In this document: positions 5,712-41,139 of the stretch, in pieces | Layout of the letters: each line of letters starts with the position of its first letter | Position numbering within the stretch: the first letter of the stretch is position 1 | Origin: an uncultured Alphaproteobacteria bacterium | Lineage (GTDB): Bacteria; Pseudomonadota; Alphaproteobacteria; Acetobacterales; Acetobacteraceae | DNA length: 64,000 nucleotides | NCBI GenBank assembly: GCA_963797305.1 | Contig: CAWCOW010000003.1 | Coordinates: forward strand, 856,043 to 920,042 | Reading direction: 5' to 3' | The notes under the pieces: generated by a model | The model's database searches: none | The model's input: only the letters and a program-made list of their open reading frames with translations | Told to the model about the DNA's origin: nothing | Made by a program: the position numbers and the translations under genes

Positions 5712-5792
5712 GTCGGCAGGGTCAGGCGACGCTGATCCGATGGCCACTATGGCGACGCCCAGGAATAAGCGAATTGGGGGGCCGCCCCCTTC

Positions 5793-7563: not shown

Positions 7564-7584
7564 GCGTTGCCCTCCCGGCCGGTC

Positions 7585-8304: not shown

Positions 8305-8460
8305 GCCGGTTACTGTCCCTCCCAAACCATCGTCATGGCGTAGCAGACCTCTTTTCCCGCCACCGAAAAAGGTGTTCACGATCTCGTCGGGTAGCCATTT
8401 GCCGCTGCACCGCGCAGCTTGGATGCCCAACTCGAATTTCGGGCGTCACAGGAGTTCATC

Positions 8461-9633
8461 ATGGGCACTGCATTGAAGGACCTCGCCGCCGCCGGGGTCG
8501 CGGTCTGGCTGGACGATTTAAGCCGCACCCGCATCCACTCCGGCAGCCTGGCGCATTCGGTCGAGGCCGGCGAGATCGTCGGCATCACCACCAACCCGAC
8601 GATCTTCTCCAAGGCCATTGGCAGCGGGTCGGGATATGAGGACCAGTTGCGCGACCTCGCCGTTCGCGGCACCGCTATCGGCGAGACGCTGCGGCTGCTG
8701 ACCGCATGGGACGTCCGCGCCGCCTGCGACATCCTGCATCCGGTCTACGAAAAGTCGGGCGGCCGCGATGGCCGCGTCTCCATCGAGGTGGACCCGCGCA
8801 TCGCCGAGGATGCCGGACGCACCGCCGCCGAGGCGCGCGGCCTGTGGTGGCTGGTGGACCGGCCCAACCTGTTCATCAAGATCCCCGCCACCCTGGCCGG
8901 CCTGCCGGCGATCACCGAGACCCTCGCCGCGGGGATCAGCGTCAACGTCACGCTGATCTTCTCGGTGGAACGCTACAAGGCGGTGCTGGAGGCATTCCTC
9001 AGCGGCCTCGAACAGCGACTGAAAGCGGGCGGCAGCCTGCATGGGATCGAAAGCGTCGCCTCTTTCTTCGTCAGTCGCGTCGATACCGAGGTCGACAAGC
9101 GGCTCGGCTCCAACGCCCCGCAATTGCGCGGACAGGCGGCGGTGGCGAACAGCCGGCTGGCGTATGAAGTGTATGAGCACATGCTCGAGACGCCGCGCTG
9201 GCAGGCGCTGGCGGCGGCGGGCGCGATGCCGCAGCGGCTGCTGTGGGCCTCGACCGGCGTGAAGGACAAGTCGTTCCCCGATACCAAGTATGTCGTCGAT
9301 CTGGTGGCCAAGGACACGGTCAACACGATGCCGGAGGCGACGCTGCGAGCGGTGGCCGACCACGGAACGGTGCGCGGCGACACGATCCGCGACGGCTACG
9401 CCGCGGCGCGCAAGGTGATCGCGGATCTGCGCACGGCCGGAGTGGACATCGCGGATGTGGCCGAGGTGCTGGAAAAGCAGGGCGTCGAATTGTTCGAAAA
9501 GAGCTGGGAGGAACTGATCGCCTCGGTCACCGAACAGATCGAGAAGGCCGGCGGCTCGGTGACGCCCGACGGCGCTGTCAAACCAGCCGGTGGCGGCGGG
9601 CCCGCTGCTGCTTCCCTCGGCCGTTCGGCGTAG
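8461..9633 (+). CDS. tal: Transaldolase (large actinobacterial/cyanobacterial-type subfamily)
   Basis: [31 protein letters not shown] (Schiff-base Lys), [30 protein letters not shown]. Confidence 0.95.
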
Positions 9634-10405: not shown

Positions 10406-12418
10406 ATGGTATGGCCGGGCGCGCAGGAGTTCGTGTTCTCCGTGAAGGCGTTCGCTGCGGCGATGCTGGCGTTCTGGATCGCCTGCGCGCTGAACCTGCC
10501 GCATCCGATGTGGGCCATTTTTACGGTTTACGTCGTGATGCAGCCGATCTCCGGGGCCGTGCGGTCCCGCGCCGTCTATCGGATGATCGGCACCCTCGCG
10601 GGCCTGGCTGTCGCGGTGTTTCTGACGGCGCTGCTCGCGAACCTGCCCGGCGCGCTGTTTCTCTCCATCGGCCTGGCTGCCCTGCTCGGCTTCCTCGGCG
10701 CAATGATCGACCAGACCCCGCGGGGATATACGTATTTGCTGGCCGGCATTACCGCGGCCCTGATCGGGTTGCCCGACGCGCTCGATCCGCTGTCCGGCTT
10801 CACCACCGCTATCGCCCGCACGGAGGAGACGCTGCTTGGTATCGTCTGCGCCACGGTGATCGACAGCATTGTCTTTCCGCACCCCGCTGGAGCAATCCTC
10901 AACGCTCGGGTCGCAGCCTGGCTGGAGCGGGCGCGGACCTACACGCTCCAGGGGCTCCTCGGCGCGGACGGTGCGGATGGCAGCTATCGCGAGCTGAGCC
11001 AACTGGCCGCCGATGCCGCTCAGTTGGACACGCTGGCGTTTCACGTCGCCTACGACATCGTGCCGAACCCGCCGCCCCCCCGGGTGGTCCGGCTGTTGCA
11101 CACGCGCATGCTGCTGCTGATCCGGCTTATGTTCGCCGCCCGGGACTGGGCGCCGCTGATGGCCTCCGGCCCTGCCGCGACGCCCCGCACGCGTCTGGCG
11201 GTGCGGGCGCTCAGTAACTGGGTCAGGGCGTTGCCGGCGGTATCGGCCGAGCAGACCGAGGCGACCCAGCGGACGATCGACGATCTGCGTGAGACGCCGG
11301 ATGCGCCAGCCGGCGCGCCGAGCCTGCTGCAAAGCAGCCTGGCGCTGATGCTGGGCGATCTCATGCTCGGCCACCGGGACTGCGTGGCGTTGCAGCGCGC
11401 GGTGGCCGAGGGCGCGCCGCTGCCAGATCATCTGCGGCTGGCCGCGCGGAGCGAAAAGCTTTCGGCGCCGTATCGCGATCCGCTTCGCGCGCTGCTGGTG
11501 CTGTTGCCGGTTGCGCTCGCCTTCCTTTTGGTCGCCTTGTATTGGACCGCGACCGCTTGGGACGAAGGGCGGGAAGCGTCCATGATGACGTTGGTGGCCG
11601 GGCTGTTTGCCACCATGTCGCCCGAGCCGGCGGAGCAGTTGGCGCGCGTTGCGGTGATCCTGGCCGCGTCCGCCGTCGTGGCCATCGGCTACCAGTTCGC
11701 CGTGCTGCCGGGCGTGAACGAGTTCCCCTTGCTGATAGTCGCGGTTGGACTGTTCCTCGTCCCGGCCGGCGCGTTCATCCCGATCACCGCGGGCACGGGC
11801 GTGATGCTGACCGTCCTGACGACGCTGATGATGAGCCTGCAGCCGGAGTATGATGCTCAATTCCACAGCGTGGTCGATGGCGCGCTCGGCGCGCTGGCGG
11901 GGGTGACCGCCGCGGCCGTGCTCGCGCGCATCACCCTGGCCCCCGGTTCGGCCTGGACCGCGCGGCATCTGCTGCGCGCCGGATGGTCGGACCTGGCTTC
12001 CATCGCGGCGCGGCGCTGGCATTCCGGGCGGGCGGCCTATGCCCTACGGGCGCTCGATCGCTTCACGGCCCTGGCGCCGCGGCTGAATGCGCCACGGCAT
12101 GAGCAGGACCTCTCGACGGCCGCGCTGCTGGGCGAGTTGCGCATCGGCCTGAACCTGCTGCGGCTGCGGGAGGATGACGCAACGCTGCCCGCCCCCGCCC
12201 GCGACGCGATCGACGCGATGCGGGCCGCGCTTGCGCGGTATTTCGACGCGCGCCGCCGCAACCGGCCGATCGGCCTTGATGAACTGCGCGAGGCGGCTGC
12301 AGCGGCGATGGCTGCCACGGCGGCGGCGATCCCCGCGGCAGGTGCTCAGGCGGCATGGTTTCATCTGGCCGGGGTGCAGCGGTCGCTGTTCGGGTCCGAG
12401 GTCGCGCATGCGCGGTGA
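10406..12418 (+). CDS. FUSC family (fusaric acid resistance/AaeB-like) membrane protein
   Basis: FSVKAFAAAMLAFWIA, PMWAIFTVYVVMQP.SGAV.SRA.YRMIGTL; multiple TM segments. Confidence 0.9.
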   Translation: MVWPGAQEFVFSVKAFAAAMLAFWIACALNLPHPMWAIFTVYVVMQPISGAVRSRAVYRMIGTLAGLAVAVFLTALLANLPGALFLSIGLAALLGFLGAMIDQTPRGYTYLLAGITAALIGLPDALDPLSGFTTAIARTEETLLGIVCATVIDSIVFPHPAGAILNARVAAWLERARTYTLQGLLGADGADGSYRELSQLAADAAQLDTLAFHVAYDIVPNPPPPRVVRLLHTRMLLLIRLMFAARDWAPLMASGPAATPRTRLAVRALSNWVRALPAVSAEQTEATQRTIDDLRETPDAPAGAPSLLQSSLALMLGDLMLGHRDCVALQRAVAEGAPLPDHLRLAARSEKLSAPYRDPLRALLVLLPVALAFLLVALYWTATAWDEGREASMMTLVAGLFATMSPEPAEQLARVAVILAASAVVAIGYQFAVLPGVNEFPLLIVAVGLFLVPAGAFIPITAGTGVMLTVLTTLMMSLQPEYDAQFHSVVDGALGALAGVTAAAVLARITLAPGSAWTARHLLRAGWSDLASIAARRWHSGRAAYALRALDRFTALAPRLNAPRHEQDLSTAALLGELRIGLNLLRLREDDATLPAPARDAIDAMRAALARYFDARRRNRPIGLDELREAAAAAMAATAAAIPAAGAQAAWFHLAGVQRSLFGSEVAHAR

Positions 12419-12641
12419 GTTCGACCTGTGCGGGGTTTATCTGCCGCCGCTGTTGCCCGCCATCGCGGTCGCCTGGGTACTGACCGCACTGCTGTTGCGG
12501 GGATTGAACGCCGTCGGCTTCTACCGCCTCGTCTGGCACCGGCCGCTGGTCAATCTGGCGCTGTTCGTCCTGGTGCTGGGCGGAACGGTGTTCGGGCTGG
12601 ACGCGGCGTTGCCGGCGCTGCGCGGGGTGCTCCCGTCATGA
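12408..12641 (+). CDS. DUF1656 (AaeX-like) small membrane protein
   Basis: MRGEFDLCGVYLPPLL..FYRLVWHRPLVNLALFV; overlaps both neighbours. Confidence 0.88.
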   Translation: MRGEFDLCGVYLPPLLPAIAVAWVLTALLLRGLNAVGFYRLVWHRPLVNLALFVLVLGGTVFGLDAALPALRGVLPS

Positions 12642-13513
12642 GAGACGAATTGCCGGTGCTGCGCCGCGTCGCCGTGACCGTGCTGCTGGTGGCTGTTGCC
12701 GCGTTCGCCGGCTGGCGGATGTGGATCTACTACCTGGAGGAACCCTGGACGCGCGACGGCATCCTGCGAGCCGATGTCGTCGGCGTGGCGGCCGACGTAT
12801 CCGGGCCGGTGGTGGAGGTGTTCGTCCACGACACGCAGGCGGTGCGGAAGGGCGACGTGTTGTTCCGCATCGATCCGTCCCGCTTCACCCTGGCTCTGCA
12901 GCAAGCGAGGGCGGACGCCGAACGCAAGCAGGCTGTCTTCGCCGAAAGCGACCGTGAGGCACGGCGCCTTTTGAACCTGACCGACATCGCGGTATCGCGT
13001 GAACAGCAGCAGCAGGCATCGGCGCTGGCGATAGAGGCCGCGGCCGACTATCAGCAGGCGCTGGCCGCGCGCGATGTCGCGCAACTGAACCTGGACCGGT
13101 CGCATGTGCGGGCTTCGGTGAACGGTGTGCTGACCAATTTCTACTTGCGGCCGGGCGACTACGTGACTGCCTCGCAACCGATTGCCGCGCTGGTCGATAC
13201 CGACTCGTTTTACGTCGATGGCTACTTTGAGGAAACCAAGCTGCCGCGCATCCATACGGGCGATCGTGCTCGAATCGAACTGATGGGCACACGCGAGGTC
13301 CTGACCGGCGAGGTGATGGGGATCGCCGGCGGCGTTTTCGACCGCCAACGCGCTGTCGGTCGCGATCTGCTGCCTAACATTACCCCAACCTTTACCTGGG
13401 TGCGACTTGCGCAGCGCATCCCCGTGCGGGTGAGTCTGGAGTTCGTGCCGCCTTCGGTGCGTCTCGTCGCCGGGCGAACCGCGACAGTAACGATCTTGCC
13501 GCCGGCACAGTGA
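12638..13513 (+). CDS. HlyD/AaeA family efflux periplasmic adaptor
   Basis: PWTRDG..ADVV.VAADVSG, VRKGDVLFRID, VRASVNG, GYFEETKL, TFTWVRLAQRIPVRV. Confidence 0.92.
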   Translation: MRDELPVLRRVAVTVLLVAVAAFAGWRMWIYYLEEPWTRDGILRADVVGVAADVSGPVVEVFVHDTQAVRKGDVLFRIDPSRFTLALQQARADAERKQAVFAESDREARRLLNLTDIAVSREQQQQASALAIEAAADYQQALAARDVAQLNLDRSHVRASVNGVLTNFYLRPGDYVTASQPIAALVDTDSFYVDGYFEETKLPRIHTGDRARIELMGTREVLTGEVMGIAGGVFDRQRAVGRDLLPNITPTFTWVRLAQRIPVRVSLEFVPPSVRLVAGRTATVTILPPAQ

Positions 13514-13526
13514 GCACGGCTCCTTC

Positions 13527-13606
13527 ATCGTCATGGCCCGGCTTGTCCGGGCCACCGGCCAGCATCTGCCGCGACGGGTGGCCCGGACAAGCCGGGCCAT
13601 GACGAT
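13527..13606. repeat. REPIN-like palindromic element, copy 2
   Basis: 30-bp inverted repeat ATCGTCATGGCCCGGCTTGTCCGGGCCACC / GGTGGCCCGGACAAGCCGGGCCATGACGAT between convergent hlyD-like and motA genes. Confidence 0.9.
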
Positions 13607-26338: not shown

Positions 26339-26917
26339 ATGAGTGTCAGCGATGCGCACGAAATCGGAGTTTGCCGCCGCCGCGCCCTGTTAGGGGCTGG
26401 ACTGGCTTTGGCGCCCCTGGCGTTGTCGGCCGCGCGGGCGGACGATGCGGCTTCGGAAATGCCGCCGCAGCCGGGCGATCAGCTTGTGTTTTTGACAGGG
26501 CCCAAGACCGGCCAACCTATTCACGTCGAGGATTTGCCGAAAGGCGGCCCACAGGTGCAGGCTTATCCGAGAGCCCCGGATGGCACGGTGCGTGATGGCA
26601 CGCGGCTAAATCTGGTGATCGTGGCTCGCATCGGCGACGAAGGTGTCGATGAAGTGACGCTCGGGCGCATGGCGGATGGTGTCGTGGCCTATTCGGGTGT
26701 CTGCACCCATCAGGCCTGTCCGGTAAACATGTGGTCGGACGCCAATCGCACGTTCGTTTGTTCCTGCCACGGATCGGTGTACGACCCGCGCAACGATGCC
26801 GAGGTACTGGACGGGCCGGCGCCGCATCACCTGGCGGGCCTGCCGTTAAAGACCGAGAATGGCGTGCTGATTGTCGCCGGTGGATTTACCGGGCGCGTCG
26901 GTATGCAAACGACTTGA
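26339..26917 (+). CDS. Tat-exported Rieske [2Fe-2S] protein
   Basis: RRRALL..ARA Tat-type signal, boxes CTHQAC and CSCHGSVY, GPAP motif; about 100 bp upstream of a PQQ dehydrogenase. Confidence 0.9.
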   Translation: MSVSDAHEIGVCRRRALLGAGLALAPLALSAARADDAASEMPPQPGDQLVFLTGPKTGQPIHVEDLPKGGPQVQAYPRAPDGTVRDGTRLNLVIVARIGDEGVDEVTLGRMADGVVAYSGVCTHQACPVNMWSDANRTFVCSCHGSVYDPRNDAEVLDGPAPHHLAGLPLKTENGVLIVAGGFTGRVGMQTT

Positions 26918-27013
26918 TGCGCACAGCAACCGCTGACGGGACCGCGCGGCCCGGCCGCATCATGGCAAGTAAAGCGCGAACGCGTTGACCTGAACGACTT
27001 CAAGGGGGAAATA

Positions 27014-28735
27014 ATGAAGAAGCTACTGGTTGGCTCAAGTCTGGCGGTGCTGATGATGGCGGGCATTCCGGGCGTGGCCCGCAGCGCCGACTACTCACCG
27101 GTTACCGATGCGCGCCTGCAAAATCCCGAGCCGCAGAACTGGCTGATGACACGCGGCAATTACCAGGGCTGGAGCTACAGCCCGCTCGAACAGATCAACG
27201 CCAGCAACGTCAAAAAGCTCACCCCCGTCTGGGCTGTTTCGACAGGCGTCGATTCCGGCCACGAATCGCCGCCAATCGTTAACAACGGGATGATGTTCGT
27301 GGCGACGCCGTATAGTCAGGTGTTGGCGCTGGATGCGGCGTCAGGGACCTTGCTGTGGCGTTACAAGCGCCGGCTGCCGGAGGGCTTCAGCGCCCTGCAT
27401 AACACCAGCCGCGGCGTGGCGCTGTATGGCGACAAGGTGTTCATGCCGACGCTGGACGCTGTCCTGGTGGCGTTGGACGCCAAGACTGGCAAGGTCGCGT
27501 GGGAAGCCAAGGTCGAGGACTGGAAGACCGGCTATTACATGACCATGGCTCCGCTTATCGTAAAGGGTAAAGTCCTGGTCGGCGTCGCGGGCGGAGAGTT
27601 CGGGGTGCGCGGGTTCATCGAGGCGTTCGATGCCGACACGGGAAAGCCGGCCTGGAAGACCTATACCATTCCGGCGCCCGGCGAGCCCGGCAGCGACACT
27701 TGGCAGAAGCCCGATACCTGGAAGACCGGCGGTGCTTCTACCTGGATGACAGGCAATTACGATCCGGCTACGAATGTGGTGTATTGGGGCACCGGAAACG
27801 GTTCGCCGTGGTTCGGCGATCAGCGGCCGGGCGACAATCTTTACACATCCTCAACGCTCGCGCTGGATGGCGATACCGGCAAGATCAAGGGGCATTTCCA
27901 GTATCACCAGAACAAGTCGTGGGACTGGGACGCGATGAACGCGCCGATGCTGGTGGATTTCCAGCGCAATGGCAAAACGACAAAAGGCCTGCTGACGCCG
28001 CAGCGCAACGGTTATCTGTATTGGCTGGGGCGCGAACCTGACGGCGGCATCTCGTACCTGAACTCCATCGCGTACGTTCCGCAGAACGTTTTCAAAGGCA
28101 TCGATCCGGAAACCGGACGGCCGGATGTGGACCTGGCGCACAAGCCGGGGACCGGCAAGGCCGCGCAGTTCTGTCCCGGGCTTTGGGGTGGCAAGGACTG
28201 GCCGTTCGAGGCTTACAATCCGAAGACCGGCATCGTCTATATCCCATCGAACGAAAACCACTGCAACACGCTGGAAGGAAAGGTCGAGCAACGCGTGCCC
28301 GGCCAATGGTGGACCGGCGTTGCGGTGCCAGACCTGCATTTCTCGGTCGATACGAAGGCGCCTTTCTACGGCGAGCTTCAAGCCTATGACGTCAACACCG
28401 GCAAGCGCGCGTGGCGGGACACCTACAAGGATTCCATGATGTGGGGTTCGGTGCTGACCACGGCGGGCGACCTGGTATTTGCCGGCGGCACCAACGATCG
28501 GGACTTCCGCGCCTATAATGCGAAAAGCGGCGAGGAACTCTGGAAGTTCAGGACCAACTCCGGGGTGATCGCGCCGCCGTCGACGTTCGAAGTCAACGGC
28601 ACACAATATATCGCGGTGGCCTCCGGCTACGGCGTCGATCCGGCGTTCCAGCAGGGGCTGATGGCCAATCTGGTGGGCTGGAATGCCGACGTGCCACAGG
28701 GTGGCGTGATCTGGGTGTTCGCTCTTTCGAAGTGA
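27014..28735 (+). CDS. PQQ-dependent alcohol dehydrogenase family protein 1 (no vicinal disulfide, D-x-D motif)
   Basis: Signal peptide, NWLMTRGNYQGWSYSPLEQIN, ESPPIV, GGEFGVRG, GGASTW, GTGNGSPW, WDWD, CPG..GGKDW, W-repeat propeller; no haem c domain. Confidence 0.92.
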   Translation: MKKLLVGSSLAVLMMAGIPGVARSADYSPVTDARLQNPEPQNWLMTRGNYQGWSYSPLEQINASNVKKLTPVWAVSTGVDSGHESPPIVNNGMMFVATPYSQVLALDAASGTLLWRYKRRLPEGFSALHNTSRGVALYGDKVFMPTLDAVLVALDAKTGKVAWEAKVEDWKTGYYMTMAPLIVKGKVLVGVAGGEFGVRGFIEAFDADTGKPAWKTYTIPAPGEPGSDTWQKPDTWKTGGASTWMTGNYDPATNVVYWGTGNGSPWFGDQRPGDNLYTSSTLALDGDTGKIKGHFQYHQNKSWDWDAMNAPMLVDFQRNGKTTKGLLTPQRNGYLYWLGREPDGGISYLNSIAYVPQNVFKGIDPETGRPDVDLAHKPGTGKAAQFCPGLWGGKDWPFEAYNPKTGIVYIPSNENHCNTLEGKVEQRVPGQWWTGVAVPDLHFSVDTKAPFYGELQAYDVNTGKRAWRDTYKDSMMWGSVLTTAGDLVFAGGTNDRDFRAYNAKSGEELWKFRTNSGVIAPPSTFEVNGTQYIAVASGYGVDPAFQQGLMANLVGWNADVPQGGVIWVFALSK

Positions 28736-28794
28736 TCCGAGTGCGGGCCGGCCGCCAGAAATGGCGTCTGGCCCATCGGCTTTAGGATATGTCC

Positions 28795-29232
28795 ATGAAA
28801 ACTGTATATGCACTGTCCCGGCGTTTCGCCCTTGCGCTGACGGTCGCGGGTCTGACTGTATCGGCCGCGGGTAGCGTGGCGGCCGGCGAACCTGACGCCT
28901 ACGATGTCAATGTGAGCGACGTCACCGCCAAAGTCGGAGAGCCCGCTGTAATGCTCGCGACCTTGAAGGTCCGCGATGGCTATCGGATTTTGACGGCCTA
29001 CAACAACCGGGTCATCAAACTGTCTTCGTGGGATGACGGCGTCGTCTTCGAACAGGACATGGTGCCGGCGAAGGTTGAAGATGGTGCCTTGGTTTTCAAG
29101 GTTGGCCTGAAAGCGACCAAGCCCGGCACCCACCCGATCAACGGGCTGCTGCGTGTCGGTTATATCCAGGGCACCGACGAAATGGCTATGGTGTCAATGA
29201 AGCTGATCGCCAACGTTACGGGAACCGAGTAA
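28795..29232 (+). CDS. Exported hypothetical protein, beta-rich (DsbD-N/Ig-like appearance)
   Basis: AGGA RBS, signal peptide (FALALTVAGLTVSAAGSVAA), alternating hydrophobic beta pattern, no Cys. Start is 28789 or 28795. Confidence 0.65.
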   Translation: MKTVYALSRRFALALTVAGLTVSAAGSVAAGEPDAYDVNVSDVTAKVGEPAVMLATLKVRDGYRILTAYNNRVIKLSSWDDGVVFEQDMVPAKVEDGALVFKVGLKATKPGTHPINGLLRVGYIQGTDEMAMVSMKLIANVTGTE

Positions 29233-29247
29233 CGTCTCACCGTGCGC

Positions 29248-29853
29248 CTACCCGGCTTTCAGGATCGTTAGCTGGGTGGCATTGGTGAAGTCGCGCAAAT
29301 CCTTCGACGGATCGCGGTACAGTTGACGATCGAGCAAAAACCGCCGCGATTCCGTCACCTTCTCACAATGCTCATGCACGAACACTCCGCCAACCGGCTG
29401 TTCAGTCGCAGTCGGTTCGATTGTATGGCAGCGCCAGCCATCTTCGCCGAACCGCGCCTTTGCCTGGATGGCGAACAGGAAAGCCTTCTTGTGCTGATAC
29501 AGCCTGACATGCGGATCTGTTTCGATCCGTAGCCCGGCGACCTGTGCCGCATCATCGATCAGCAACGCCAGGGTTACCGGCTGCCCACCCACAACCGTTT
29601 CGCCCTCATCGTAACGGAAGCTGATGGCGTGATAACCGTCCGAAGACGGCGCGCAAGCATTGTAATCCTGCCAATTCGTCAGCTTCCGCGCGGGATCGTT
29701 GGCGCATGCAAATTCGCCGTATCCGCTTTGCGGCAGCGCAGAAACCGGCATGCCGACGCGGAACTCGCGCAGATCGTTCTGCTGCGAGGGCGCCGCCGCC
29801 GCACATAGCGGCAGCAGCATCGCGGCTGTCATCACGGAACGGGATATCGTCAC
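29248..29853 (-). CDS. Exported hypothetical protein with four Cys
   Basis: GTG start after GGAAGG, signal peptide, DLREFRVGM, FAC..C..FRYD, WRC..HEHC; follows the cytochrome c gene by 4 bp. Confidence 0.7.
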   Translation of the reverse strand: MTISRSVMTAAMLLPLCAAAAPSQQNDLREFRVGMPVSALPQSGYGEFACANDPARKLTNWQDYNACAPSSDGYHAISFRYDEGETVVGGQPVTLALLIDDAAQVAGLRIETDPHVRLYQHKKAFLFAIQAKARFGEDGWRCHTIEPTATEQPVGGVFVHEHCEKVTESRRFLLDRQLYRDPSKDLRDFTNATQLTILKAG

Positions 29854-29857
29854 GAGG

Positions 29858-30457
29858 TTACCTTCCTGCATCCTGATGCGGTGCATTGGAATCGGTCGCC
29901 GCGTCGACCTTCATGTGTTCATGCGCCGGGGCTTGGTCTTGCTCCGCGGCCGCGTGCTGAATTCCGCCTTCATCCTTGGCATACATGTCACAGACGCGGC
30001 TGCCGGTGCCGAAGAACGACCGGCATTGATCGATTGTTGCCTCGCCCTGACCCTTGATGTGTTCCACCACATATTTGGCGACCGCATCGATATCCGCCGG
30101 GCGCAGCGGGTGATCGGCTGCGGGCGGGATCTGGCCCGGCCCGAGCTGGGCCGCTTTCATTCCGTAGCATCGGCCATCGGAATACGCATCGGTATCGAAA
30201 TGCGGCATCCCTTTCGAGATGCGTCCGCATTTGATCGTCAGTTCGATCTGATCAAGCGACAGCTTTGTCTTTCGCAGATTCGCCGCGGCACCGCCATAGC
30301 CGCCGCCACCGGTGCCGGTCCATTTATGGCAGCCGACGCAATTAGCGGCCTTGAATACCCGCAGCCCCTCGTCGGAGGAATCGGCCAGGGCGAAACCTGA
30401 ACCGGCAATCATCGCCGCGAAAACCGCGGCCGGAATGAGATAAAATCCCTTGATCAC
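29858..30457 (-). CDS. Periplasmic monohaem cytochrome c
   Basis: Signal peptide, ANCVGCHKW (CxxCH), GMPHF (axial Met candidate), four extra Cys. Confidence 0.9.
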   Translation of the reverse strand: MIKGFYLIPAAVFAAMIAGSGFALADSSDEGLRVFKAANCVGCHKWTGTGGGGYGGAAANLRKTKLSLDQIELTIKCGRISKGMPHFDTDAYSDGRCYGMKAAQLGPGQIPPAADHPLRPADIDAVAKYVVEHIKGQGEATIDQCRSFFGTGSRVCDMYAKDEGGIQHAAAEQDQAPAHEHMKVDAATDSNAPHQDAGR

Positions 30458-30524
30458 AGCATGCGACTTTCTGGTTCTGAACAGTGGCCGGGGCGGGTCG
30501 GCGGCCCGCGCCCGGTTCCTGTCA

Positions 30525-32285
30525 TCAGTTCAACGAGAAGACATACAAAGCTGAACTCGGATGTATCGCCTTGAGTTCCGGCGTCCCCTCGATAAACCAT
30601 TTGTCCCAGGCGCCGCCTTGGCCGACCAGTATCGCGATATACTGCTTGCCGTCGGACGTGAACGTCATGGGGGGCGCGTTCACTCCGCCGCCAGTGTTGA
30701 AGCTCCAAAGTTCCTGCAGATTTTTCGCGTCCAGGGCTGCAACCTTGCCGTCCGGCTGGCCATAGAATACGAGGTCCGGTGTGGTCAGCAGGCCGCCAAG
30801 CATCGGAAACGGCGTTTCATGCTTGCCGACTTCCTTACCGGTGGTCACGTCGATCGCGGTCACACTGCCGGTTATGCGTTCAGGCTGATCCGGTCCGCCA
30901 CCAGTGAAGAACTCCCGCTTCGCGACCGGCTTGCCGGGTGTCTCCGGTTTGACGGTAATGCGGTTGCAACTTTCAATAACCGGAATGTACCATTCCTTCA
31001 GCACCGGATTATAGGCGGTCGGCGGCCAGTTCTTGCCGCCCATGTTGCCCGGACAGATGATCGTTACCGGGTTTTCTTTGCTGGGTGTGACCGAGGCATT
31101 GTACTTCTGAACATCCGCCTTCGGATCATACTCAACCGGCTTGCCGGTTTCCTGATCCAAACCCTTCGTCCAGGTCACTTTCTTTACGAACGGCAGACCC
31201 CAAACGAACTGGCCGTTATCCCGATCCAGCGCATAGGCAAAACCGTTGCGATCAGCTTCCAGATCGAGGTGCCGAGGCTGTCCGTGGACGGGCGCGTCGG
31301 CCAGCACGTTCTCCGAGACACTGTCATAGTCGAACGCGTCGTTCGGAGTATGCTGGAAGTGCCACTTGATCTTTCCGGAATCAGCATCGAGGGCCAAAGT
31401 GCTGTCCGTATACAGGTCGTCGCCGGGACGATACGCCGAATCCCAGTCCGGCCCGGGATTGCCAACGCCCCAGTACAGCGTATTCGTCCGCGGATCGTAA
31501 CTGCCGGTCACCCATGTCGATCCGCCACCGGTAGCCGCCGCGTTATGGCTGTCCTTCCAGGTCTCGCTGCCAGGCTCGCCCTTCGCCGGAATCGTGTAAG
31601 TGCGCCAGACTTCCTTCTGCGTCCCGATATCGGTCGCCGCGATCCATCCGCGAATGCCATACTCCGCCCCGGCCACACCCGTAATGACCAAGTTCTTCAC
31701 CACCAATGGCGCGCCGGTAATCACTTCGCTCTTGTCTGGATCGGCCACTTGCCGCTGCCATGCGATCTGACCAGTCTTCTTGTTGGTGGCGATCAACCGC
31801 CCGTCCAGCGAATGCGACAGGACAAGATCGCCGGACAATGCCACGCCGCGGTTGTCCACGCCGCAACAGGCAACAGCCCCGGCCCAATCGTGGTCCGTCT
31901 TCGGATCCATGCGCCACAGCACTTTAGCCTGGCCGCCTTTCGTATCGATTTTGTAAACAGACCCCCAACCGTCCGTCACATACATGAACCCGTCCTGCAC
32001 GATCGGCGTGCCTTCCAGGCCACCATGCGACCAGATCCCCCCGCCCTCGATCCCGCCCAGTTGAAGCGTCCAGGCAACGTGCAGGTTCTTGACGTTATCC
32101 TTGTTGATCTGGTTCAGCGGCGAGAACCGTTGCGCCGAGTAATCCTTATGGTGCGTCAGCCAATTACCCGGATCCGAGTCAGCCTTCAGAAGTTGGTCGG
32201 ACGTCACCTCGTCGGCCGCAAAAACCGCTGTCTGGCTCCCGAGGATCAATGCGACGATCGCCGCGGCGCATTTTGTTTTTTTCAT
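30525..32285 (-). CDS. PQQ-dependent alcohol dehydrogenase family protein 2 (vicinal CC, DYD motif)
   Basis: Signal peptide, NWLTHHKDYSAQRFSPLNQIN, ACCGVDNRG, GAEYGIRG, GGGSTW, GVGNPGP, PNDAFDYD, CPGNMGGKNW. Confidence 0.93.
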   Translation of the reverse strand: MKKTKCAAAIVALILGSQTAVFAADEVTSDQLLKADSDPGNWLTHHKDYSAQRFSPLNQINKDNVKNLHVAWTLQLGGIEGGGIWSHGGLEGTPIVQDGFMYVTDGWGSVYKIDTKGGQAKVLWRMDPKTDHDWAGAVACCGVDNRGVALSGDLVLSHSLDGRLIATNKKTGQIAWQRQVADPDKSEVITGAPLVVKNLVITGVAGAEYGIRGWIAATDIGTQKEVWRTYTIPAKGEPGSETWKDSHNAAATGGGSTWVTGSYDPRTNTLYWGVGNPGPDWDSAYRPGDDLYTDSTLALDADSGKIKWHFQHTPNDAFDYDSVSENVLADAPVHGQPRHLDLEADRNGFAYALDRDNGQFVWGLPFVKKVTWTKGLDQETGKPVEYDPKADVQKYNASVTPSKENPVTIICPGNMGGKNWPPTAYNPVLKEWYIPVIESCNRITVKPETPGKPVAKREFFTGGGPDQPERITGSVTAIDVTTGKEVGKHETPFPMLGGLLTTPDLVFYGQPDGKVAALDAKNLQELWSFNTGGGVNAPPMTFTSDGKQYIAILVGQGGAWDKWFIEGTPELKAIHPSSALYVFSLN

Positions 32286-32313
32286 TCTGTTTCTTCCCTT
32301 GGGTGGTTCGGCG

Positions 32314-32556
32314 CTACTTGCCGTTAGCCTCGACCTTCGACTTTTCGCTGTTGTTCATGGCTTTGACGGTCTTGCTTTGATCGGTTTCCCCCGTCGTCCG
32401 CGTAGTCGTTGCAGGCGGTGCCGAAGACGGCACCGACTTTTCCATTGCCGGACCATTGCCGATGTGCGCCTTGGCCGGCGGCGGGATGTCGTCAGCCAGG
32501 GCAGCCCCGCCCCAAACGAGCAGGGCTGCACCGGCGGTCAGTAATAAATGTCTCAA
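32314..32556 (-). CDS. Small exported low-complexity protein
   Basis: TTG start after AAGGAGAG; signal peptide [18 protein letters not shown], then a Pro/Thr/Lys-rich tail; lies between iorB-like and PQQ DH2. Confidence 0.6.
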
Positions 32557-32570
32557 ACAGCTCTCCTTGT

Positions 32571-34856
32571 TCAGGCGTTTTCCAACTGCTTGCCGATAGG
32601 CAGGCTGCGGATGCGCTTGCCGGTGGCCGCGAAGATCGCATTGCAAAGCGCCGGAGCGAACGGCGGCACGCCCGGTTCGCCAACCCCGCTCGGAGGTGTC
32701 TCCGGTCCAGGCGGCATAATGTAGACGTTCGTCACCACCGGTCCCTCGTCGATGCGGGCGACTTTGAAGTCGTCGAAGTTCTTCTGCTGCACGCGTCCGT
32801 TCTTGAAGGTGATTTCTCCATATTTGGCCAGGCTGAGGCCCATGATCGCGGCCCCTTCGATCTGCGACTGAATCCGCTCCGGGTTCACGTAGGTACCGCA
32901 ATCGATGGCGGTATCGACACGCGGAATGGTTAGTTTACCCTTGTCGTCCACCGCTACTTCCACGATCGTTGCAACATAGCTGACAAAGCTGCGGTGCGCC
33001 GCGATGCCTAGCCCGTGACCTTTCGGCAACGAACGTCCCCACTGGCCCTTCTGCGCCACCAGTTCGACGACCTTGCGAAGCCGCCCGGCATCGATCGGAT
33101 AGCTGCTGATGGGCTCGCCATAATCCCAAAGGTCCTTTACGGATGGACCGACATTAACAATCCGCGCAGGGCCGATCAGTTCCAGCAGCATGTCCTTGGG
33201 ATCGCGTCCGGTCTCGTGGGCAAGCTCGGCAACCATCGTTTGCACGGCGAAGGCGTGGGGAATATTCGACACCGATCGGAACCAGCCAATGCGGGTGTAG
33301 GCGGCGGCTTCCGGGTTTTCGCAGCGAATGTTGGGGATGTCGAACGGCACATCGACCAACCCCATGCCGAGCTCGAACGGCGCCTGATGCTTGGCGCCGG
33401 CAGCAAACGTCGACATGATTGTCGGCGCCACGCTGCGATGCCGCCAGGCGATCACCTTGCCGCCCTTGTCCAATCCGGCCTCGATCCGTTCGGCGGACAC
33501 CGTGTGAAGGAAGTCGTGCTGGATATCATCCTCACGGGTCCACTGCACTTTCACCGGCGCGCCGACGGCCTTGGACAGCAGCGCCGCTTCCAACGCGAAG
33601 TCGCATTTCGACTTGCGGCCGAAACCGCCGCCCAGCAACGTCACGTTGACCGTAACATTTTCCGGAGAAATGCCCAGCGTTTTGGCGACATCATCGCGGG
33701 TCCCTTGCGGACTTTGCACCGGGGCCCAAACCACCGCCTTGCCGTCCGAGACATGCGCGGTGGCGACGGGACTTTCCATGGCGGCGTGGGCGAAATGCGG
33801 CGCGTAATACTCCCCGACGACAACCTTGTCCGCTGATTTCATTGCAGCGTCCACATCGCCGTTGTTCCGAACTACCTCACCCGGCTGGCGCGACGCGTCC
33901 TCTAGTTCCTTGCGGTAGGCTACGGAATCGTAGGAGGCGTTGGGGCCGTCATCCCACACCACTTTCAGCGCGTCGCGACCTTTGATCGCGGCACCGGTGT
34001 TGCGGGCGATGACGGCGACACCGCCGAGCGGCTGGAACTTCGAGGGCCAGGGCCAGCCCTGCACCTCGATCACCTGCTCCACACCGGACACCTTCAGGGC
34101 ATCGGAAGCATCGAACGAAACCAGTTTGCCGCCGGTGACGGGGGGGCGGGCGATGACGGCGTATTTCATCCCCGGTAGCCTGGTGTCGATGCCGTACATT
34201 GCCTTCCCAACGGTGATGTCGTGAAGATCGACGATGCTTATACGACCCTTGCCGATATACCGGTAATCCTTGGGATCCTTCAGCTTCAGCTTCGACGCGT
34301 CCGCGACCGGTTGATCCGCGGCATCTTCCGCCAGTTCGCCATATCCCAGCTTCTGATTCGTGCCGACACGGATGACTTCATGGTTCACCGCCCTTACTTG
34401 ACTAACTGGAACATTCCACCGCTTGGCGGCGGCGGCTTCCAGCATCATGCGAGCGGAGGCGCCGACCTGCCGCATCGGAATCAGGAAGTGGCGGGTGCTG
34501 CGGGACCCGTCGGTGTCCTGGTTGCCGTATTTCGCCTCGTCGCCCGGCGCCTGTTGGACCCTGACCTTGTTCCAGTCCGCTTCCATTTCATCCGCAACGA
34601 CCATCGGCAGGCTGGTGCGCACGCCGGTCCCCATCTCCGACCGCGATGCGATGATGGTGACGATGCCATCCGGAGCGATGGAAACGAACACCTTCGGATC
34701 GTTGACCGTGCCATGCGGCATCTTGTCCGCGCCGGTCGAATAGGCCGCCATGGAGCGCCGCGTGCTCACCGGAACGGCAAGCACCAGACCGGCGGTGACG
34801 CCCAATCCGCGCAGGACACCGCGTCGGGAAACGTTCTCTATACGATTCTGGAACAT
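32571..34856 (-). CDS. Xanthine dehydrogenase-family molybdopterin subunit (IorB-like)
   Basis: SRRGVLRG Tat-like N-terminus, [76 protein letters not shown]. Confidence 0.95.
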
Positions 34857-34859
34857 GAC

Positions 34860-35312
34860 TCAGGCCCCCGTCGATGCAAGCCGCACAGCCGTTTCGATCC
34901 GCGCATAACAGCCGCACCGACAGATGTTGCCGGCCATGGATTCGCGGATGTCGTCGTGCGACGGATGAGGGTTGTGGGAGATGAGAGAGGCCGCCTGCAT
35001 GATCTGCCCGGACTGACAGTATCCGCATTGCGGCACGTTGACTTCTCGCCAGGCTTTCTGCACCGGATGATTGCCGGCAGGATCCAGGCCCTCAATCGTC
35101 GTGACCCTCTTGCCCGATGCTTGCAGCAACGTCGTGCTGCAGGAGCGCACGGCGATGCCCTCCAGATGCACCGTGCAGGCGCCACAGAAGCCATGGCCGC
35201 AGCCGAACTTGGTGCCGGTCAGGCCGGCCTCATCGCGAAGATACCACAACAGAGGCAGCGACGGATCGCCGTCCCACGTGTGTTCCTGCCCGTTGACTGT
35301 CAGTGTTATCAT
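34860..35312 (-). CDS. (2Fe-2S) small subunit (IorA-like)
   Basis: LLWYLRD..GLTGTKFGCGHGFCGACTV, QCGYCQSGQIM, GNICRCGCY. Confidence 0.95.
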   Translation of the reverse strand: MITLTVNGQEHTWDGDPSLPLLWYLRDEAGLTGTKFGCGHGFCGACTVHLEGIAVRSCSTTLLQASGKRVTTIEGLDPAGNHPVQKAWREVNVPQCGYCQSGQIMQAASLISHNPHPSHDDIRESMAGNICRCGCYARIETAVRLASTGA

Positions 35313-35743: not shown

Positions 35744-36142
35744 TTATCCCATCGCCTGCGTGGCCGACGGCGTAATCTCGTAGATCACCCGGACGTCCTT
35801 GTCGTTGTGCCAGGGATAGACGTCCTTATCGAGATACTTCTTCGCCAGGCTGTCGATATGCGCAACCGCGCCGTCTTCAGTCTCCTTGGTGACCGCGCCG
35901 CGGATCTGGATGTAGCGATAGGGGTTGTCGGGATCGAGGATCGCCAGCGCCACCTTCGACCCCACCGACAGATTGCGCGCCTTGACCCGGCCCTTCGCGG
36001 TATTCACGCGGACGATGCCGTTGGTGTAGTCGAACCAGACCGGCGTCACCTGCGGCGAGCCGTCCGGCTGGATTGTGGCGATGTTCGCAAAGGCTTTTTT
36101 CTCGGTTAGCAGATCGAGAAAACCGGCGGGAATTTCGGCCAT
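35744..36142 (-). CDS. PPOX class F420-dependent-like oxidoreductase (Rv1155-like)
   Basis: FANIATIQPDGSPQVTPVWF, NTAKGRVKARNL, DPDNPYRYIQIRG, IDSLAKKYL..YP; AGGAG RBS. Confidence 0.88.
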   Translation of the reverse strand: MAEIPAGFLDLLTEKKAFANIATIQPDGSPQVTPVWFDYTNGIVRVNTAKGRVKARNLSVGSKVALAILDPDNPYRYIQIRGAVTKETEDGAVAHIDSLAKKYLDKDVYPWHNDKDVRVIYEITPSATQAMG

Positions 36143-36201
36143 GATGCACTCCTAACTCGTTGACTAATCGTAAGTGGGGCTGGCGGCCCTGCTGGCAAGA
36201 T

Positions 36202-37344
36202 TCAACTCAATGCCCGTTTCGCGACCGCTGCAAGATAGCCAGCGGCGGCCGGCAATATGGCATCGTTGAAATCATAGTTGGCGCTATGCAGTTCCCTCCC
36301 GCCGTCCGAAGGACCGTTGCCGATCCAGACGAAGGCCCCGGGGCGCTGGCGGAGATACCAAGCGAAGTCCTCGCCCGCCATCGCGGGCGCGAGGTCCCGC
36401 CGCAATTTCAACCCCGCGGACAAGACCGCCTCCACCGCGAGATCGCGTTCGGCCGGCGTGTTCCGCGTGACGGGATTGCCGTAGGGAATCTGCACGTCGA
36501 TATCGACACCGAAACTCAGTGCCACGCCGTCGGCGATACGGTGAATCGCCTGCTCCACGTGATCCCCGACCTCGTCGCGCAGGCAGCGCATGGTGCCACG
36601 CATCAGCACGCTGTCGGGAATCTGGTTTGCCGCCGATCCGGCCTGCATCATCGCGATGGAAACCACGGCGGCATCCAGCGGATCGACAGTGCGCGAGACG
36701 ATCGACTGCAACGCGATCAACAAATGCGCAGCGGCGACCATCGGATCTCGCGTCAGGTGCGGCAGGCCCGCGTGGCCGCCGTGGCCCGTAACGGTGAACC
36801 ACAAACGGTTGCCCGCGGCCATGACTGGACCGTCGTGCACCGCAACGGTACCGGCCTCCAGACCCGGCCAATTGTGGTAGCCGAAAATGCGCTCCATCGG
36901 AAAGCGGTCGAACAGGCCGTCGGCGATCATGCGCTTGGCGCCTCCACCGCCCTCTTCCGCCGGTTGGAACACGAAGCGAACCGTTCCGGACCAGTCGTGA
37001 TCCGCCGTCAGTAGCGCCGCGGCTCCGAGCAAGGATGTTGTGTGGCCGTCATGGCCGCAGGCATGCATCACGCCCGGATTGCGCGACACATGCTCAACGC
37101 CCGTCATCTCATTGATCGGCAGCGCGTCCATGTCCGCACGCAATCCGACCGAGCGGTTCGATCGGCCGCGGCTGATCGTTGCCACGACGCCGTAGCCGCC
37201 GACATCAGCAACAAAAGGAACCCCCAGTTCGCTCAGACATGCTTGCACGAACGCCGAGGTTCGGGATTCCTCAAGGGTAAGCTCGGGGTTTGCGTGGAGA
37301 TGACGCCGCCATCCGATCAGCCTGTCGTGCAGCGTCTTATCCAA
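36202..37344 (-). CDS. M20 family amidohydrolase (hippurate hydrolase-like)
   Basis: WRRHLHANPEL, RADMDALP, MHACGHDGHT, FQPAEEG, HNWP, GEDF, LHS..YDFND. Confidence 0.93.
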   Translation of the reverse strand: MDKTLHDRLIGWRRHLHANPELTLEESRTSAFVQACLSELGVPFVADVGGYGVVATISRGRSNRSVGLRADMDALPINEMTGVEHVSRNPGVMHACGHDGHTTSLLGAAALLTADHDWSGTVRFVFQPAEEGGGGAKRMIADGLFDRFPMERIFGYHNWPGLEAGTVAVHDGPVMAAGNRLWFTVTGHGGHAGLPHLTRDPMVAAAHLLIALQSIVSRTVDPLDAAVVSIAMMQAGSAANQIPDSVLMRGTMRCLRDEVGDHVEQAIHRIADGVALSFGVDIDVQIPYGNPVTRNTPAERDLAVEAVLSAGLKLRRDLAPAMAGEDFAWYLRQRPGAFVWIGNGPSDGGRELHSANYDFNDAILPAAAGYLAAVAKRALS

Positions 37345-39528: not shown

Positions 39529-41139
39529 TCAGTGGAGTTCGGGCAGGCGCATGGCATGGCCAAAGCGGCGCGACGGTTCCTGCGGGTCACCGTATTTTCG
39601 GTGCATCGCGGTATGATAGGCTGCCGCCAGCAGCAGCTTGTCGCGGTCCGGCTGCCGGTTGGTCTCGAAGTCCATCAGCATGCACTGGGCGATTTCCTGG
39701 TTGTGCGGGTCATTGCCCAGCTTGCAGGCAGCCAGCGCGATCCGTTGCAAAAGGTTGTCACGATCGGAGACGTTGTCACAGTAAGCCTGCGTCCAGCCCA
39801 TGGCTTCGTCGCCGTTCAGCGCGCAGATCGATGCATCGACACGGTCCAGAAGCTGAGCGGCATTCAGCGATGCCGCCGCAGACGGAACCTGCAACGAGAC
39901 CGGATGCACCTCGCCGATGCCGTGCTGATGATACGCGACACGGTTGGCGAACATCGCGGCGACGTACAGCAGGCGCAGCCGGCGCGGGTGGTCGAAGGTG
40001 TCGTAGAACCAGGCCAGCGTGTTCTGATATTCATAGCAGTGGTGCGGCATGTTGAACGCCGCTTGATCCCGGGTTTCCAGCACGATTTGCGCCGCGGTCA
40101 CTTGCAACACATCCAGGATACTGCGCGGGTCCTTGCCGGACTTCAGCAGTTTCGTCACCGCCTCCAACGTTTCGATCTCGCCCTTCTGCAAAATCGCCAT
40201 GCTGAGTTCAGCCGCTTCCTGTTGGTTCACCGGTTCCTTGTTGCGCAGCATCGCGAGTTCCGCGTCGCTGACGCCGCTGTACGGGACTGCGTGCAGCGCT
40301 TCGCCCTCGATCATCATCTTGATGTAGTTGCAGGCGACTTCGTACGTAGAATACCAGCGCGGCCCGACGGCGATATCCAGCGCGCCGGCATAAATGATGT
40401 TGTGCGCATGATCCCAGCCAATCGCGTTGCCGAGTTCCACCGTCGATCGGGCGCGGTAGGCTTTGTGGCCGGTGGTATAGGAACGGTTATGTAACAGACG
40501 ATCCTGCACGTCAATCAGGCCGGCGAAACAGAGTTCGGCGAGAACCTCCGGGCGCTCCGCCGGATCTTGCATCAGGCCGAGGAACAGCCTGTAGGCATCG
40601 ATCACGTTGCCTCGATGCACATGGGTCATCCAGGTGTTCAGCCGTTCGCCCAGCGGTCCGGTCTGCCGCACGGGTTCCTGATCAGGCCAGTACACGACGG
40701 GGGGCGGAGGCGCTTCCACGACGCCGAGGTTGCCGCGCTGGCGTGTATAGTGGCCGGGTGCCTTGTTGATCTTCTGGTTCCAGATATCGAGGCCGGTTGG
40801 AATGTACCAGATCGTCTGCGCCATCGGCAGCATCGCCAGATGCGAGGGCATCATGCGGTTCAGATTGAGCGTTGCCCGCGCACTGAGCAGGCAATGGTCG
40901 TTGTTGACGAAATTCGGGTAACCGTCGTCGATACGCTCATGATACGGCACATGCGTGTAAGGGGCATGGATGCGAACGCTTTCGGAGACGATCTCGTTCA
41001 GCGGGCGATTGGCGCGCACAAGATCGTAAAAGACATCGCTGGCGCCTTTTTGGTCCCGCATTAGGCAACGGTCTTCCAACCTGTCATAAAGACCGCGGAC
41101 TACGCTGGTTTTCCGATCGGGATCGCAGGTCGTATCCAT
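39529..41139 (-). CDS. Hypothetical alpha-helical protein with four periodic His motifs
   Basis: 536-aa ORF, GGAGG RBS, normal codon pattern; no family recognised with confidence. Confidence 0.8.
   Translation of the reverse strand: MDTTCDPDRKTSVVRGLYDRLEDRCLMRDQKGASDVFYDLVRANRPLNEIVSESVRIHAPYTHVPYHERIDDGYPNFVNNDHCLLSARATLNLNRMMPSHLAMLPMAQTIWYIPTGLDIWNQKINKAPGHYTRQRGNLGVVEAPPPPVVYWPDQEPVRQTGPLGERLNTWMTHVHRGNVIDAYRLFLGLMQDPAERPEVLAELCFAGLIDVQDRLLHNRSYTTGHKAYRARSTVELGNAIGWDHAHNIIYAGALDIAVGPRWYSTYEVACNYIKMMIEGEALHAVPYSGVSDAELAMLRNKEPVNQQEAAELSMAILQKGEIETLEAVTKLLKSGKDPRSILDVLQVTAAQIVLETRDQAAFNMPHHCYEYQNTLAWFYDTFDHPRRLRLLYVAAMFANRVAYHQHGIGEVHPVSLQVPSAAASLNAAQLLDRVDASICALNGDEAMGWTQAYCDNVSDRDNLLQRIALAACKLGNDPHNQEIAQCMLMDFETNRQPDRDKLLLAAAYHTAMHRKYGDPQEPSRRFGHAMRLPELH

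Follow-up and report, generated by a model that had tools for sequence, protein, structure and literature searches.

A Rieske protein as the apparent redox partner of a PQQ dehydrogenase family without the vicinal disulfide ring, viewed from an Acetobacteraceae genome

In the ped/exa system of Pseudomonas, alcohols are oxidized in the periplasm by two enzymes that use pyrroloquinoline quinone (PQQ), PedH/ExaF and PedE/ExaA, together with cytochrome c550, and the resulting aldehyde is oxidized by PedI, which depends on nicotinamide adenine dinucleotide (NAD). A ring formed by vicinal cysteines (Cys-Cys) is seen as typical of PQQ alcohol and methanol dehydrogenases and as important for their activity. 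To our knowledge, every characterized soluble enzyme of this kind donates its electrons to a c-type cytochrome or to a fused haem domain. The membrane glucose dehydrogenase of E. coli, Gcd, uses ubiquinone and not cytochrome c as its electron acceptor, and its His262 was proposed as a replacement for the disulfide ring. In the bc1 complex, finally, the electron donor to the Rieske protein is quinol. Here we describe a block of nine genes at positions 26339-35312 of a 64,000-nucleotide stretch of DNA (the whole of which we call the window; contig CAWCOW010000003.1, positions 856,043 to 920,042) from an uncultured member of the Acetobacteraceae. One of its two PQQ dehydrogenases, DH1, carries a His where the disulfide ring would be and is encoded beside a Rieske [2Fe-2S] protein, and we consider it rather probable, judging from the comparisons below, that DH1 passes its electrons, one at a time, to this Rieske protein as a dedicated acceptor.

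Every protein of the window was mapped onto a comparison set of 80 species-level genomes that encode a relative of DH1 (57-92% identical); some of the counts rest on subsets, namely 64 Rieske-DH1 pairs in which both open reading frames (ORFs) were called, and 76 DH1 loci in the case of a scan for CxxCH motifs. All nine ORFs were confirmed within 26339-35312, with the ends of the block coinciding with the likeliest start codons of the Rieske gene (start) and of iorA (end). Family scans agree with the gene content, the domains and the convergent layout given in a preliminary description of this DNA; three of the nine products match no family. The three genes of the plus strand, which we call module A, are separated by gaps of 96 and 59 nucleotides:

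26339-26917, plus strand: Rieske [2Fe-2S] protein of 192 amino acids (PF00355), with the boxes CTHQAC and CSCHGSVY and the twin-arginine translocation (Tat) motif RRRALL
27014-28735, plus strand: DH1, a PQQ dehydrogenase of 573 amino acids (TIGR03075, 578.9 bits)
28795-29232, plus strand: unknown exported protein of 145 amino acids, with no Pfam or NCBIfam match

The solved structure that DH1 matches best is PedH (PDB 6ZCV; E = 1.7e-111), and it has in common with PedH/ExaF and PedE/ExaA the eight-bladed PQQ propeller as well as the metal and PQQ ligands, which in DH1 are E195, N262, D304, D306 and R331. D304-W-D306, aligned to the DFD of PedH, contains the extra Asp of lanthanide-type enzymes, and the score against TIGR03075, the model of the methanol/ethanol family of PQQ-dependent dehydrogenases, lies above the curated cut-off of 480 bits, as does that of the second PQQ dehydrogenase of the block, DH2. 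Unlike the ped/exa enzymes, DH1 has Leu128-His129 at the position of the vicinal Cys-Cys, a Rieske gene next to it and no cognate cytochrome c gene. These active-site features extend to the whole family: all 80 DH1 relatives and their paralogues lack the Cys-Cys, carry the motif [AQ]LH.T.RG and retain the PQQ and metal ligands. Within this shared motif, His129 of DH1 aligns exactly with His262 of Gcd (ALHNTSRG versus FQHVTCRG), the residue at the disulfide-ring position of that enzyme. In other respects the two differ, DH1 being soluble and a member of the TIGR03075 family, whereas Gcd has an N-terminal membrane anchor; against the Gcd family model, DH1 reaches 196 bits at a cut-off of 833. 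Reminiscent of the pair PedH and PedE, the DH1 family has both lanthanide-type (DWD) and calcium-type (DWA) members.

DH1 is 61% identical to Adh6 and 55% identical to Adh4 of Methylobacterium aquaticum, and the His motif is common to all three. On account of this similarity, we tentatively assign DH1 to type 6a of the PQQ-dependent alcohol dehydrogenases (PQQ-ADH), a family that has been catalogued and is uncharacterized. The category is said to stem from the scheme of Keltjens et al. 2014, and the two M. aquaticum enzymes have been assigned to it in PMC7356819, where the family is called uncharacterized. It is also a large one, widespread among soil bacteria, with at least 582 stretches among species-representative genomes matching DH1-type enzymes. 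One homologue of 982 amino acids (P0097) was considered as a fusion of dehydrogenase and Rieske protein and rejected, its N-terminal extension having no Rieske motif.

The Rieske protein of the window has its two boxes, CTHQAC and CSCHGS, at a spacing of 19 residues, and box II is followed by Ser and Tyr (CSCHGSVY). In bc1-type Rieske proteins, Ser and Tyr at these positions raise the redox potential. An AxA cleavage site is visible after RRRALL, and this suggests that the protein is cleaved and soluble. The closest solved structure is the Rieske protein of Thermus (1NYK/3FOU; E = 5e-34). With the Rieske proteins of AioAB and of the bc1/b6f complexes it has in common the Tat signal, the disulfide-bearing motifs and a role, here a putative one, in relaying single electrons away from a site of oxidation in the periplasm. 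Unlike these, however, it falls below the curated cut-offs (73 of 275 bits for NF050121, 36 of 97 for the bc1 model TIGR01416, 49 of 96 for the AioB model TIGR02694), and genes for cytochrome b, cytochrome c1 or AioA were not found near the Rieske gene of the window.

The comparison set yields a strong synteny signal for the pairing of this Rieske protein with DH1. A Rieske homologue adjoins the DH1 homologue in 77 of the 80 loci, which span Alpha-, Beta- and Gammaproteobacteria as well as metagenome-assembled genomes (MAGs) labelled Rokubacteria, Methylomirabilota and Acidobacteria. Both genes lie on the same strand in 64/64 pairs, with the Rieske gene upstream in 54 and downstream in 10, and the Rieske partners have the disulfide-bearing motifs CxHxxC and CxCH without exception (64/64), the 19-residue spacing in 62/64 and a twin-arginine motif in 56/64 cases. 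The pairwise distances among Rieske proteins follow those among the dehydrogenases (r = 0.86; none of 999 permutations reached this value), and Rieske subtypes go with DH1 subtypes, even where paralogous pairs occur within one genome. ORFs with a CxxCH motif within 5 kb of DH1 were found in just eight of the 76 loci, and for five of these ORFs the locus encodes a Cys-Cys dehydrogenase as well, next to or not far from the ORF. In the window itself the two arrangements meet: the Cys-Cys enzyme is accompanied by a cytochrome c, the His enzyme by a Rieske protein.

A reverse test, in which the Rieske protein was searched against annotated plasmids (19 records) and six proteobacterial loci as well as Thermus were examined, gave a corresponding picture. 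In six out of six, from Paracoccus, Roseomonas, Alteromonas, Azoarcus and two sites on a megaplasmid of M. aquaticum 22A, the Rieske gene adjoins a PQQ dehydrogenase gene, and the His motif was confirmed in five of these dehydrogenases, the Azoarcus enzyme not being picked up by the pattern search. On the Roseomonas plasmid, iorAB follows directly downstream of the pair. The Rieske gene of Thermus has a different context and is not beside a PQQ dehydrogenase. Some genomes hold a further pair of a second kind: in L002, the first pair has a paralogous Rieske-dehydrogenase pair (6607-9030; CTHAQC/CPCHQS, QLHPT) immediately upstream, in L006 an additional dehydrogenase of this kind is found with a Rieske match beside it, and Rhodopila globiformis has only this second type.

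Should this pairing reflect function, DH1 would be a soluble periplasmic enzyme with a lanthanide-type metal site that oxidizes an alcohol, and its reduced PQQ would be re-oxidized stepwise, one electron each, by the Tat-exported, high-potential Rieske protein. The latter would take the role that cytochrome c has in other PQQ alcohol dehydrogenases and would hand the electrons on to the cytochrome c/oxidase pool. The His above the PQQ would stand in for the disulfide ring, as in the membrane glucose dehydrogenase, and the 145-residue protein, a predicted beta-sandwich, would be an accessory of module A. IorAB, a molybdenum enzyme that is encoded on the opposite strand, apparently exported by the Tat pathway and without a flavin adenine dinucleotide (FAD) or cytochrome subunit, would turn the aldehyde product into an acid. 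It may be, at odds just short of even, that type 6a as a whole constitutes a distinct quinoprotein class with lanthanide and calcium forms, for which a dedicated Rieske protein rather than cytochrome c is the physiological acceptor; the Rieske cluster would then oxidize enzyme-bound PQQH2 much as it does quinol at the Qo site of bc1.

A number of observations weigh against a dedicated Rieske acceptor. Three of the 80 DH1 loci show no Rieske gene, one of them being cut by a contig end, and the correlation of r = 0.86 arises partly from shared species history. The Cys-Cys is also absent from the solved enzymes 4CVB, 7WMD, 9M2C and 22VI, which differ in local sequence and have no known Rieske partner. 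Genes for PQQ biosynthesis are not seen within the window either: as already noted in the preliminary description, there are no pqq, lut or lanM genes among the roughly 50 window genes scanned, a negative that is incomplete, as four ORFs have no family match. A last point concerns M. aquaticum, in which adh6 (Maq22A_1p30675) and adh4 (Maq22A_1p32165) could be located by their published deletion primers; these match two dehydrogenase ORFs exactly, each directly downstream of a Rieske gene. Both genes are weakly expressed on methanol or succinate, and the Ca-type adh6 is repressed by La3+ (PMC5784242). According to the conclusions of PMC7356819, MxaF and XoxF1 are the only enzymes behind growth on methanol, and XoxF1 together with ExaF accounts for growth on ethanol in the presence of lanthanum, which implies that strains with only adh4 or adh6 left did not grow on methanol or ethanol. 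The substrate of the DH1 family is therefore not an obvious one. Neither the Rieske gene nor the missing Cys-Cys of Adh4 and Adh6 is mentioned in PMC7356819 and PMC5784242. Just upstream of the Rieske-adh6 pair of M. aquaticum 22A lies a gene for a methyl-accepting chemotaxis protein (L089, 1058-2857).

The preliminary description had named the block its best candidate for an undescribed system. This stands as far as the apparent Rieske redox partner is concerned, which is undescribed in the accessible literature, and it does not stand for the enzyme family, which, judging from Adh4 and Adh6, was already catalogued as type 6a and is uncharacterized; that DH1 has no Cys-Cys, that a Rieske protein is its near-universal partner and that its type had been catalogued before had all been overlooked. 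In the open-access full texts searched, no connection between Rieske proteins and PQQ dehydrogenases was found, an absence that does not prove the pairing to be unknown. If the Rieske protein is indeed the acceptor, a ring-less family with an obligate Rieske neighbour would represent a new electron-transfer route in quinoprotein and lanthanide biochemistry, and the uncharacterized type 6a enzymes, which are common in Alphaproteobacteria of acid soils, including Bradyrhizobium, Methylobacterium and Rhodopila, would gain a testable function. A Rieske partner may also account for the difficulty of studying type 6a enzymes with standard partners, and would be of relevance to bioelectrocatalysis, in which it matters what redox partner is chosen. 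R. globiformis, M. aquaticum 22A, for which deletion strains exist, Azoarcus and Paracoccus are available as cultured hosts.

The other six genes of the block lie on the minus strand and make up modules B and C:

29248-29871, minus strand: exported protein of 207 amino acids, module C, with invariant C56, C73, C148 and C169; no family match
29858-30457, minus strand: monohaem cytochrome c of 199 amino acids, module C, with CVGCH at residue 40 (PF13442, PF00034)
30525-32285, minus strand: DH2, a PQQ dehydrogenase of 586 amino acids, module C (TIGR03075, 547.4 bits)
32314-32556, minus strand: exported low-complexity protein of 80 amino acids, putative module B accessory, with a TTG start and the ribosome-binding site AAGGAG
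32571-34856, minus strand: IorB-like molybdopterin subunit of 761 amino acids, module B (PF02738 and PF20256, i.e. MoCoBD_1 and MoCoBD_2), with the Tat motif SRRGVL
34860-35312, minus strand: IorA-like subunit of 150 amino acids, module B, with two [2Fe-2S] domains (PF01799 and PF00111, i.e. Fer2_2 and Fer2)

Their spacing is tight, ranging from a 14-nucleotide overlap, of the cytochrome c stop with the start of the 207-residue gene, to a gap of 67 nucleotides, with 3 nucleotides between iorA and iorB; they therefore fit a single six-gene operon, which converges on the plus-strand trio such that 15 nucleotides separate the stop codons of the two units. The export signals previously noted on almost every product were found, as read from the sequence, on eight of the nine, with IorA as the exception: Tat motifs on the Rieske protein and IorB, and signals of the general secretory (Sec) type on DH1, DH2, the cytochrome c, the 80-residue protein and the exported proteins of 145 and 207 residues. 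A scan for promoters and terminators gave fewer sites than in shuffled controls and was uninformative.

The notion of one nine-gene unit was not borne out by the comparison set, in which the block appears as three separately conserved modules with very different phylogenetic spread rather than as one system. More than 70 loci have module A but not module C, and more than 40 have module A but not module B. Within module A, the gene for the 145-residue protein belongs to the Rieske-DH1 cluster in about 51 loci, mostly directly downstream of DH1, and all of these have a DH1 identity of at least 64%. Orthologues of IorAB, with identities of 53-88%, are found no further than 10 kb from DH1 in about 35 of the 80 loci, frequently in a single operon of the order Rieske-DH1-unknown-iorA-iorB. 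DH2, the cytochrome c and the 207-residue protein, on the other hand, are encoded in just four loci of the set, all of them Rhodopila-like; R. globiformis and a further complete genome retain this trio as a unit, and in L083 it stands alone beside unrelated genes. Only within a narrow Rhodopila-like clade, then, do all nine genes travel together.

That the nine genes nevertheless form one co-regulated system, acquired as a block, is unlikely. In favour of it, Rhodopila-like genomes have the whole set together, collinear on one strand in L002 and likewise, minus the 145-residue gene, in L081 (R. globiformis) and L084, and the block falls below the rest of the window in its G+C content at third codon positions (GC3). 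Modules A and C are each found apart, however, and the Rhodopila MAG L058 keeps modules A and B, with DH2 present only as a pseudogene remnant (12328-12537, minus strand; CC...GVALSG...WQRQVA) between the 145-residue gene and the small ORF. The lineage of L058 has accordingly lost module C. As for the composition, the impression of more A/T-ending codons proved right, with a mean GC3 of 0.726 for eight block genes (the 80-residue ORF omitted) versus 0.815 for the 41 other genes of the window (Mann-Whitney p = 9e-6) and 0.787 for the nearer flanks (p = 7e-4). Yet the zone of lowered GC3 (about 0.79, compared to 0.83 in the outer parts) spans roughly 22-51 kb of the window, i.e. about 29 kb, and reaches well past the block.

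The acquisition that had been read from these codons is not supported as a recent event. Neither tRNA genes nor flanking repeats mark an island boundary, and the window genes with a family match include neither an integrase nor a transposase. The same genes with the same flanks, among them a DegP protease, an M20 amidohydrolase and a PPOX-family protein, recur in R. globiformis and in Rhodopila MAGs, albeit in rearranged order, and these shared flanks point to inheritance within Rhodopila rather than recent acquisition. As DH1 is 83-84% identical to proteins of MAGs labelled Bradyrhizobium and Hyphomicrobiales, an older transfer among acid-soil Alphaproteobacteria is possible.

Module B has the make-up of an IorAB-type enzyme, with a small subunit that holds two [2Fe-2S] clusters and a large subunit that binds the molybdenum cofactor. 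IorB matches the large subunit of the membrane aldehyde dehydrogenase of Gluconobacter (8GY3_C) over residues 22-754 (E = 8e-82), and the proposed two-[2Fe-2S] small subunit and Tat export of IorB are further likenesses to 8GY3, IorAB and PaoABC. Unlike 8GY3 and PaoABC, the operon has no gene for a trihaem cytochrome c subunit and none for an FAD subunit; the PaoC model gives 124 versus 1180 bits. No multihaem cytochrome gene is found beside iorAB in the window, and nearly all iorAB loci are devoid of a CxxCH ORF within 5 kb of DH1. IorA has no signal peptide, its 150-residue form agrees with the gene calls of R. globiformis, and it is presumably exported together with IorB. The 80-residue ORF has counterparts of 56-73% identity at the corresponding place in L001, L002, L056 and L058, and by position alone a small ORF (74-92 residues) is called there in L081, L082 and L084; outside the Rhodopila-like clade it has no match.

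In twelve other loci, IorAB is replaced beside the Rieske-DH1 pair by an NAD-dependent aldehyde dehydrogenase. Since two unrelated aldehyde-oxidizing enzymes thus recur next to the pair, an aldehyde product of DH1 is supported, and we lean towards the view that IorAB oxidizes an aldehyde. The chain from alcohol through aldehyde to acid that the preliminary description had proposed gains weight in this way, from the proximity of IorAB to DH1 in many of the genomes, from the likeness of IorB to 8GY3_C and from the alternative aldehyde dehydrogenase, and would resemble ped/exa in its sequence of periplasmic alcohol oxidation followed by aldehyde oxidation, with a periplasmic molybdenum enzyme at the second step, unlike the NAD-dependent PedI there.

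The calcium-type branch of the family, in Azoarcus, Xanthomonadales and Hyphomicrobium, has a neighbourhood of its own (in the loci L054-L077, L057, L062 and L075), with an aldA-like NAD-dependent aldehyde dehydrogenase, an outer-membrane channel, a sigma-54 regulator resembling AcoR and lutABC, joined in Hyphomicrobium by pyruvate dehydrogenase E1. Because lactate genes adjoin the pair, this context offers a hint, for that branch only, of a route from 1,2-propanediol via lactaldehyde and lactate to pyruvate. A gene for a TonB-dependent receptor, which could import PQQ or a metal, recurs beside the calcium-type pair in Xanthomonadales (L059, L067, L069, L072 and L077).

It is improbable, in our estimate, that the Rieske protein and DH1 are the two subunits of one enzyme for a substrate that is not a simple alcohol, for instance a diol, a sugar, a lactol or an aldehyde, with the link to IorAB reflecting metabolic neighbourhood only. 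Such a substrate would accord with the implied lack of methanol and ethanol growth of M. aquaticum strains left with adh4 or adh6, with the 1,2-propanediol/lactaldehyde route that would suit the surroundings of the calcium-type branch (lutABC, the aldA-like dehydrogenase, pyruvate dehydrogenase E1 and the sigma-54 regulator), and with the relative closeness of DH1 to 4CVB and 7WMD, which oxidize sugars and toxins. The two aldehyde-oxidizing neighbours, however, point to an aldehyde as the product, and the closest solved relative, PedH, is an ethanol dehydrogenase. Finally, that the Rieske protein serves IorAB, or acts as a carrier for the periplasm in general, instead of being tied to DH1 is very unlikely: IorAB, having neither an FAD nor a cytochrome subunit, needs an acceptor, and the Rieske protein is the only carrier encoded in the Rieske-DH1-unknown-iorA-iorB operons, but it accompanies DH1 in more than 40 loci that lack IorAB within 10 kb, among them those where an NAD-dependent aldehyde dehydrogenase is found instead, and is always found on the DH1 strand, usually directly upstream.

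Compared to the apparent pairing of DH1 with a Rieske protein, module C looks conventional. DH2 is 38-39% identical to DH1, matches PedH (6ZCV) with E = 2e-102 and keeps the Glu, Asn, Asp and extra Asp ligands as well as the PQQ-binding Arg. That the block encodes two lanthanide-type PQQ enzymes, the second with a Cys-Cys and a DYD motif, had been stated before and agrees with the aligned residues, D304-W-D306 in DH1 as well as Cys140-Cys141 and D319-Y-D321, aligned to the DFD of PedH, in DH2. With the Cys-Cys present and a cytochrome c gene adjacent, DH2 has the features of a type I enzyme. The cytochrome c, which has no close solved relative (best E = 0.012), is presumed to be its acceptor. 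In every locus examined, the 207-residue gene follows DH2 and the cytochrome c. The order of a Cys-Cys/DYD dehydrogenase, a cytochrome c and an exported accessory protein, kept as a unit, resembles xoxFGJ, to which gene order alone is common, as no homology to XoxG or XoxJ was found for the two genes that follow DH2. The best-supported reading of module C is thus an independent, conventional pair of a lanthanide-type dehydrogenase and a cytochrome c, with an accessory protein. An identification of DH2 with ExaF of M. aquaticum (type 6b) was considered, for which only a similar C-terminal peptide was seen; we make no such claim.

All 197 homologues of the 207-residue protein are annotated as hypothetical (197/197), and those with named hosts come from Rhodopila and a Rhodospirillales MAG, which points to a protein typical of Rhodopila-like Acetobacteraceae. 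Its confident AlphaFold2 model (predicted local distance difference test score (pLDDT) 86, predicted template modelling score (pTM) 0.77) had no match among solved structures (best E = 0.06, template modelling score (TM-score) below 0.3) and may represent a fold without a solved representative. The 145-residue protein of module A is likewise hypothetical in all 480 homologues found (480/480). The model obtained for it (pLDDT 77) is an immunoglobulin-like beta-sandwich, for which the fold search returned generic matches of this kind only (TM-score at most 0.5), so that no function can be deduced from it. Its signal peptide (28795-28890) contains SRRFAL, a Tat-like motif; we do not claim Tat export, as the RR pair occurs in just 19 of 38 homologues.

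The window has a G+C content of about 65%, and because the nearest relatives of its proteins come from uncultured Rhodopila, Acidisphaera and Acidicaldus, the source organism is taken to be an acidophilic, Rhodopila-like member of the Acetobacteraceae. DNA of the window was detected in soil metagenome runs only; no RNA run was listed. The four ORFs without a family match have a gene-like GC3 and lie at 39529-41139 (minus strand; the largest, with 536 residues, scanned with Pfam and NCBIfam), 5740-7059 (plus strand), 12521-13600 (minus strand) and 62017-62532 (minus strand), the latter three having been scanned with Pfam only. The DNA directly upstream of iorA (35744-37344, minus strand) codes for an M20 amidohydrolase and for a PPOX-class protein of the F420 type (TIGR03618, 109 bits), and the same pair is found directly upstream of iorA in L001, L056, L081 and L084.

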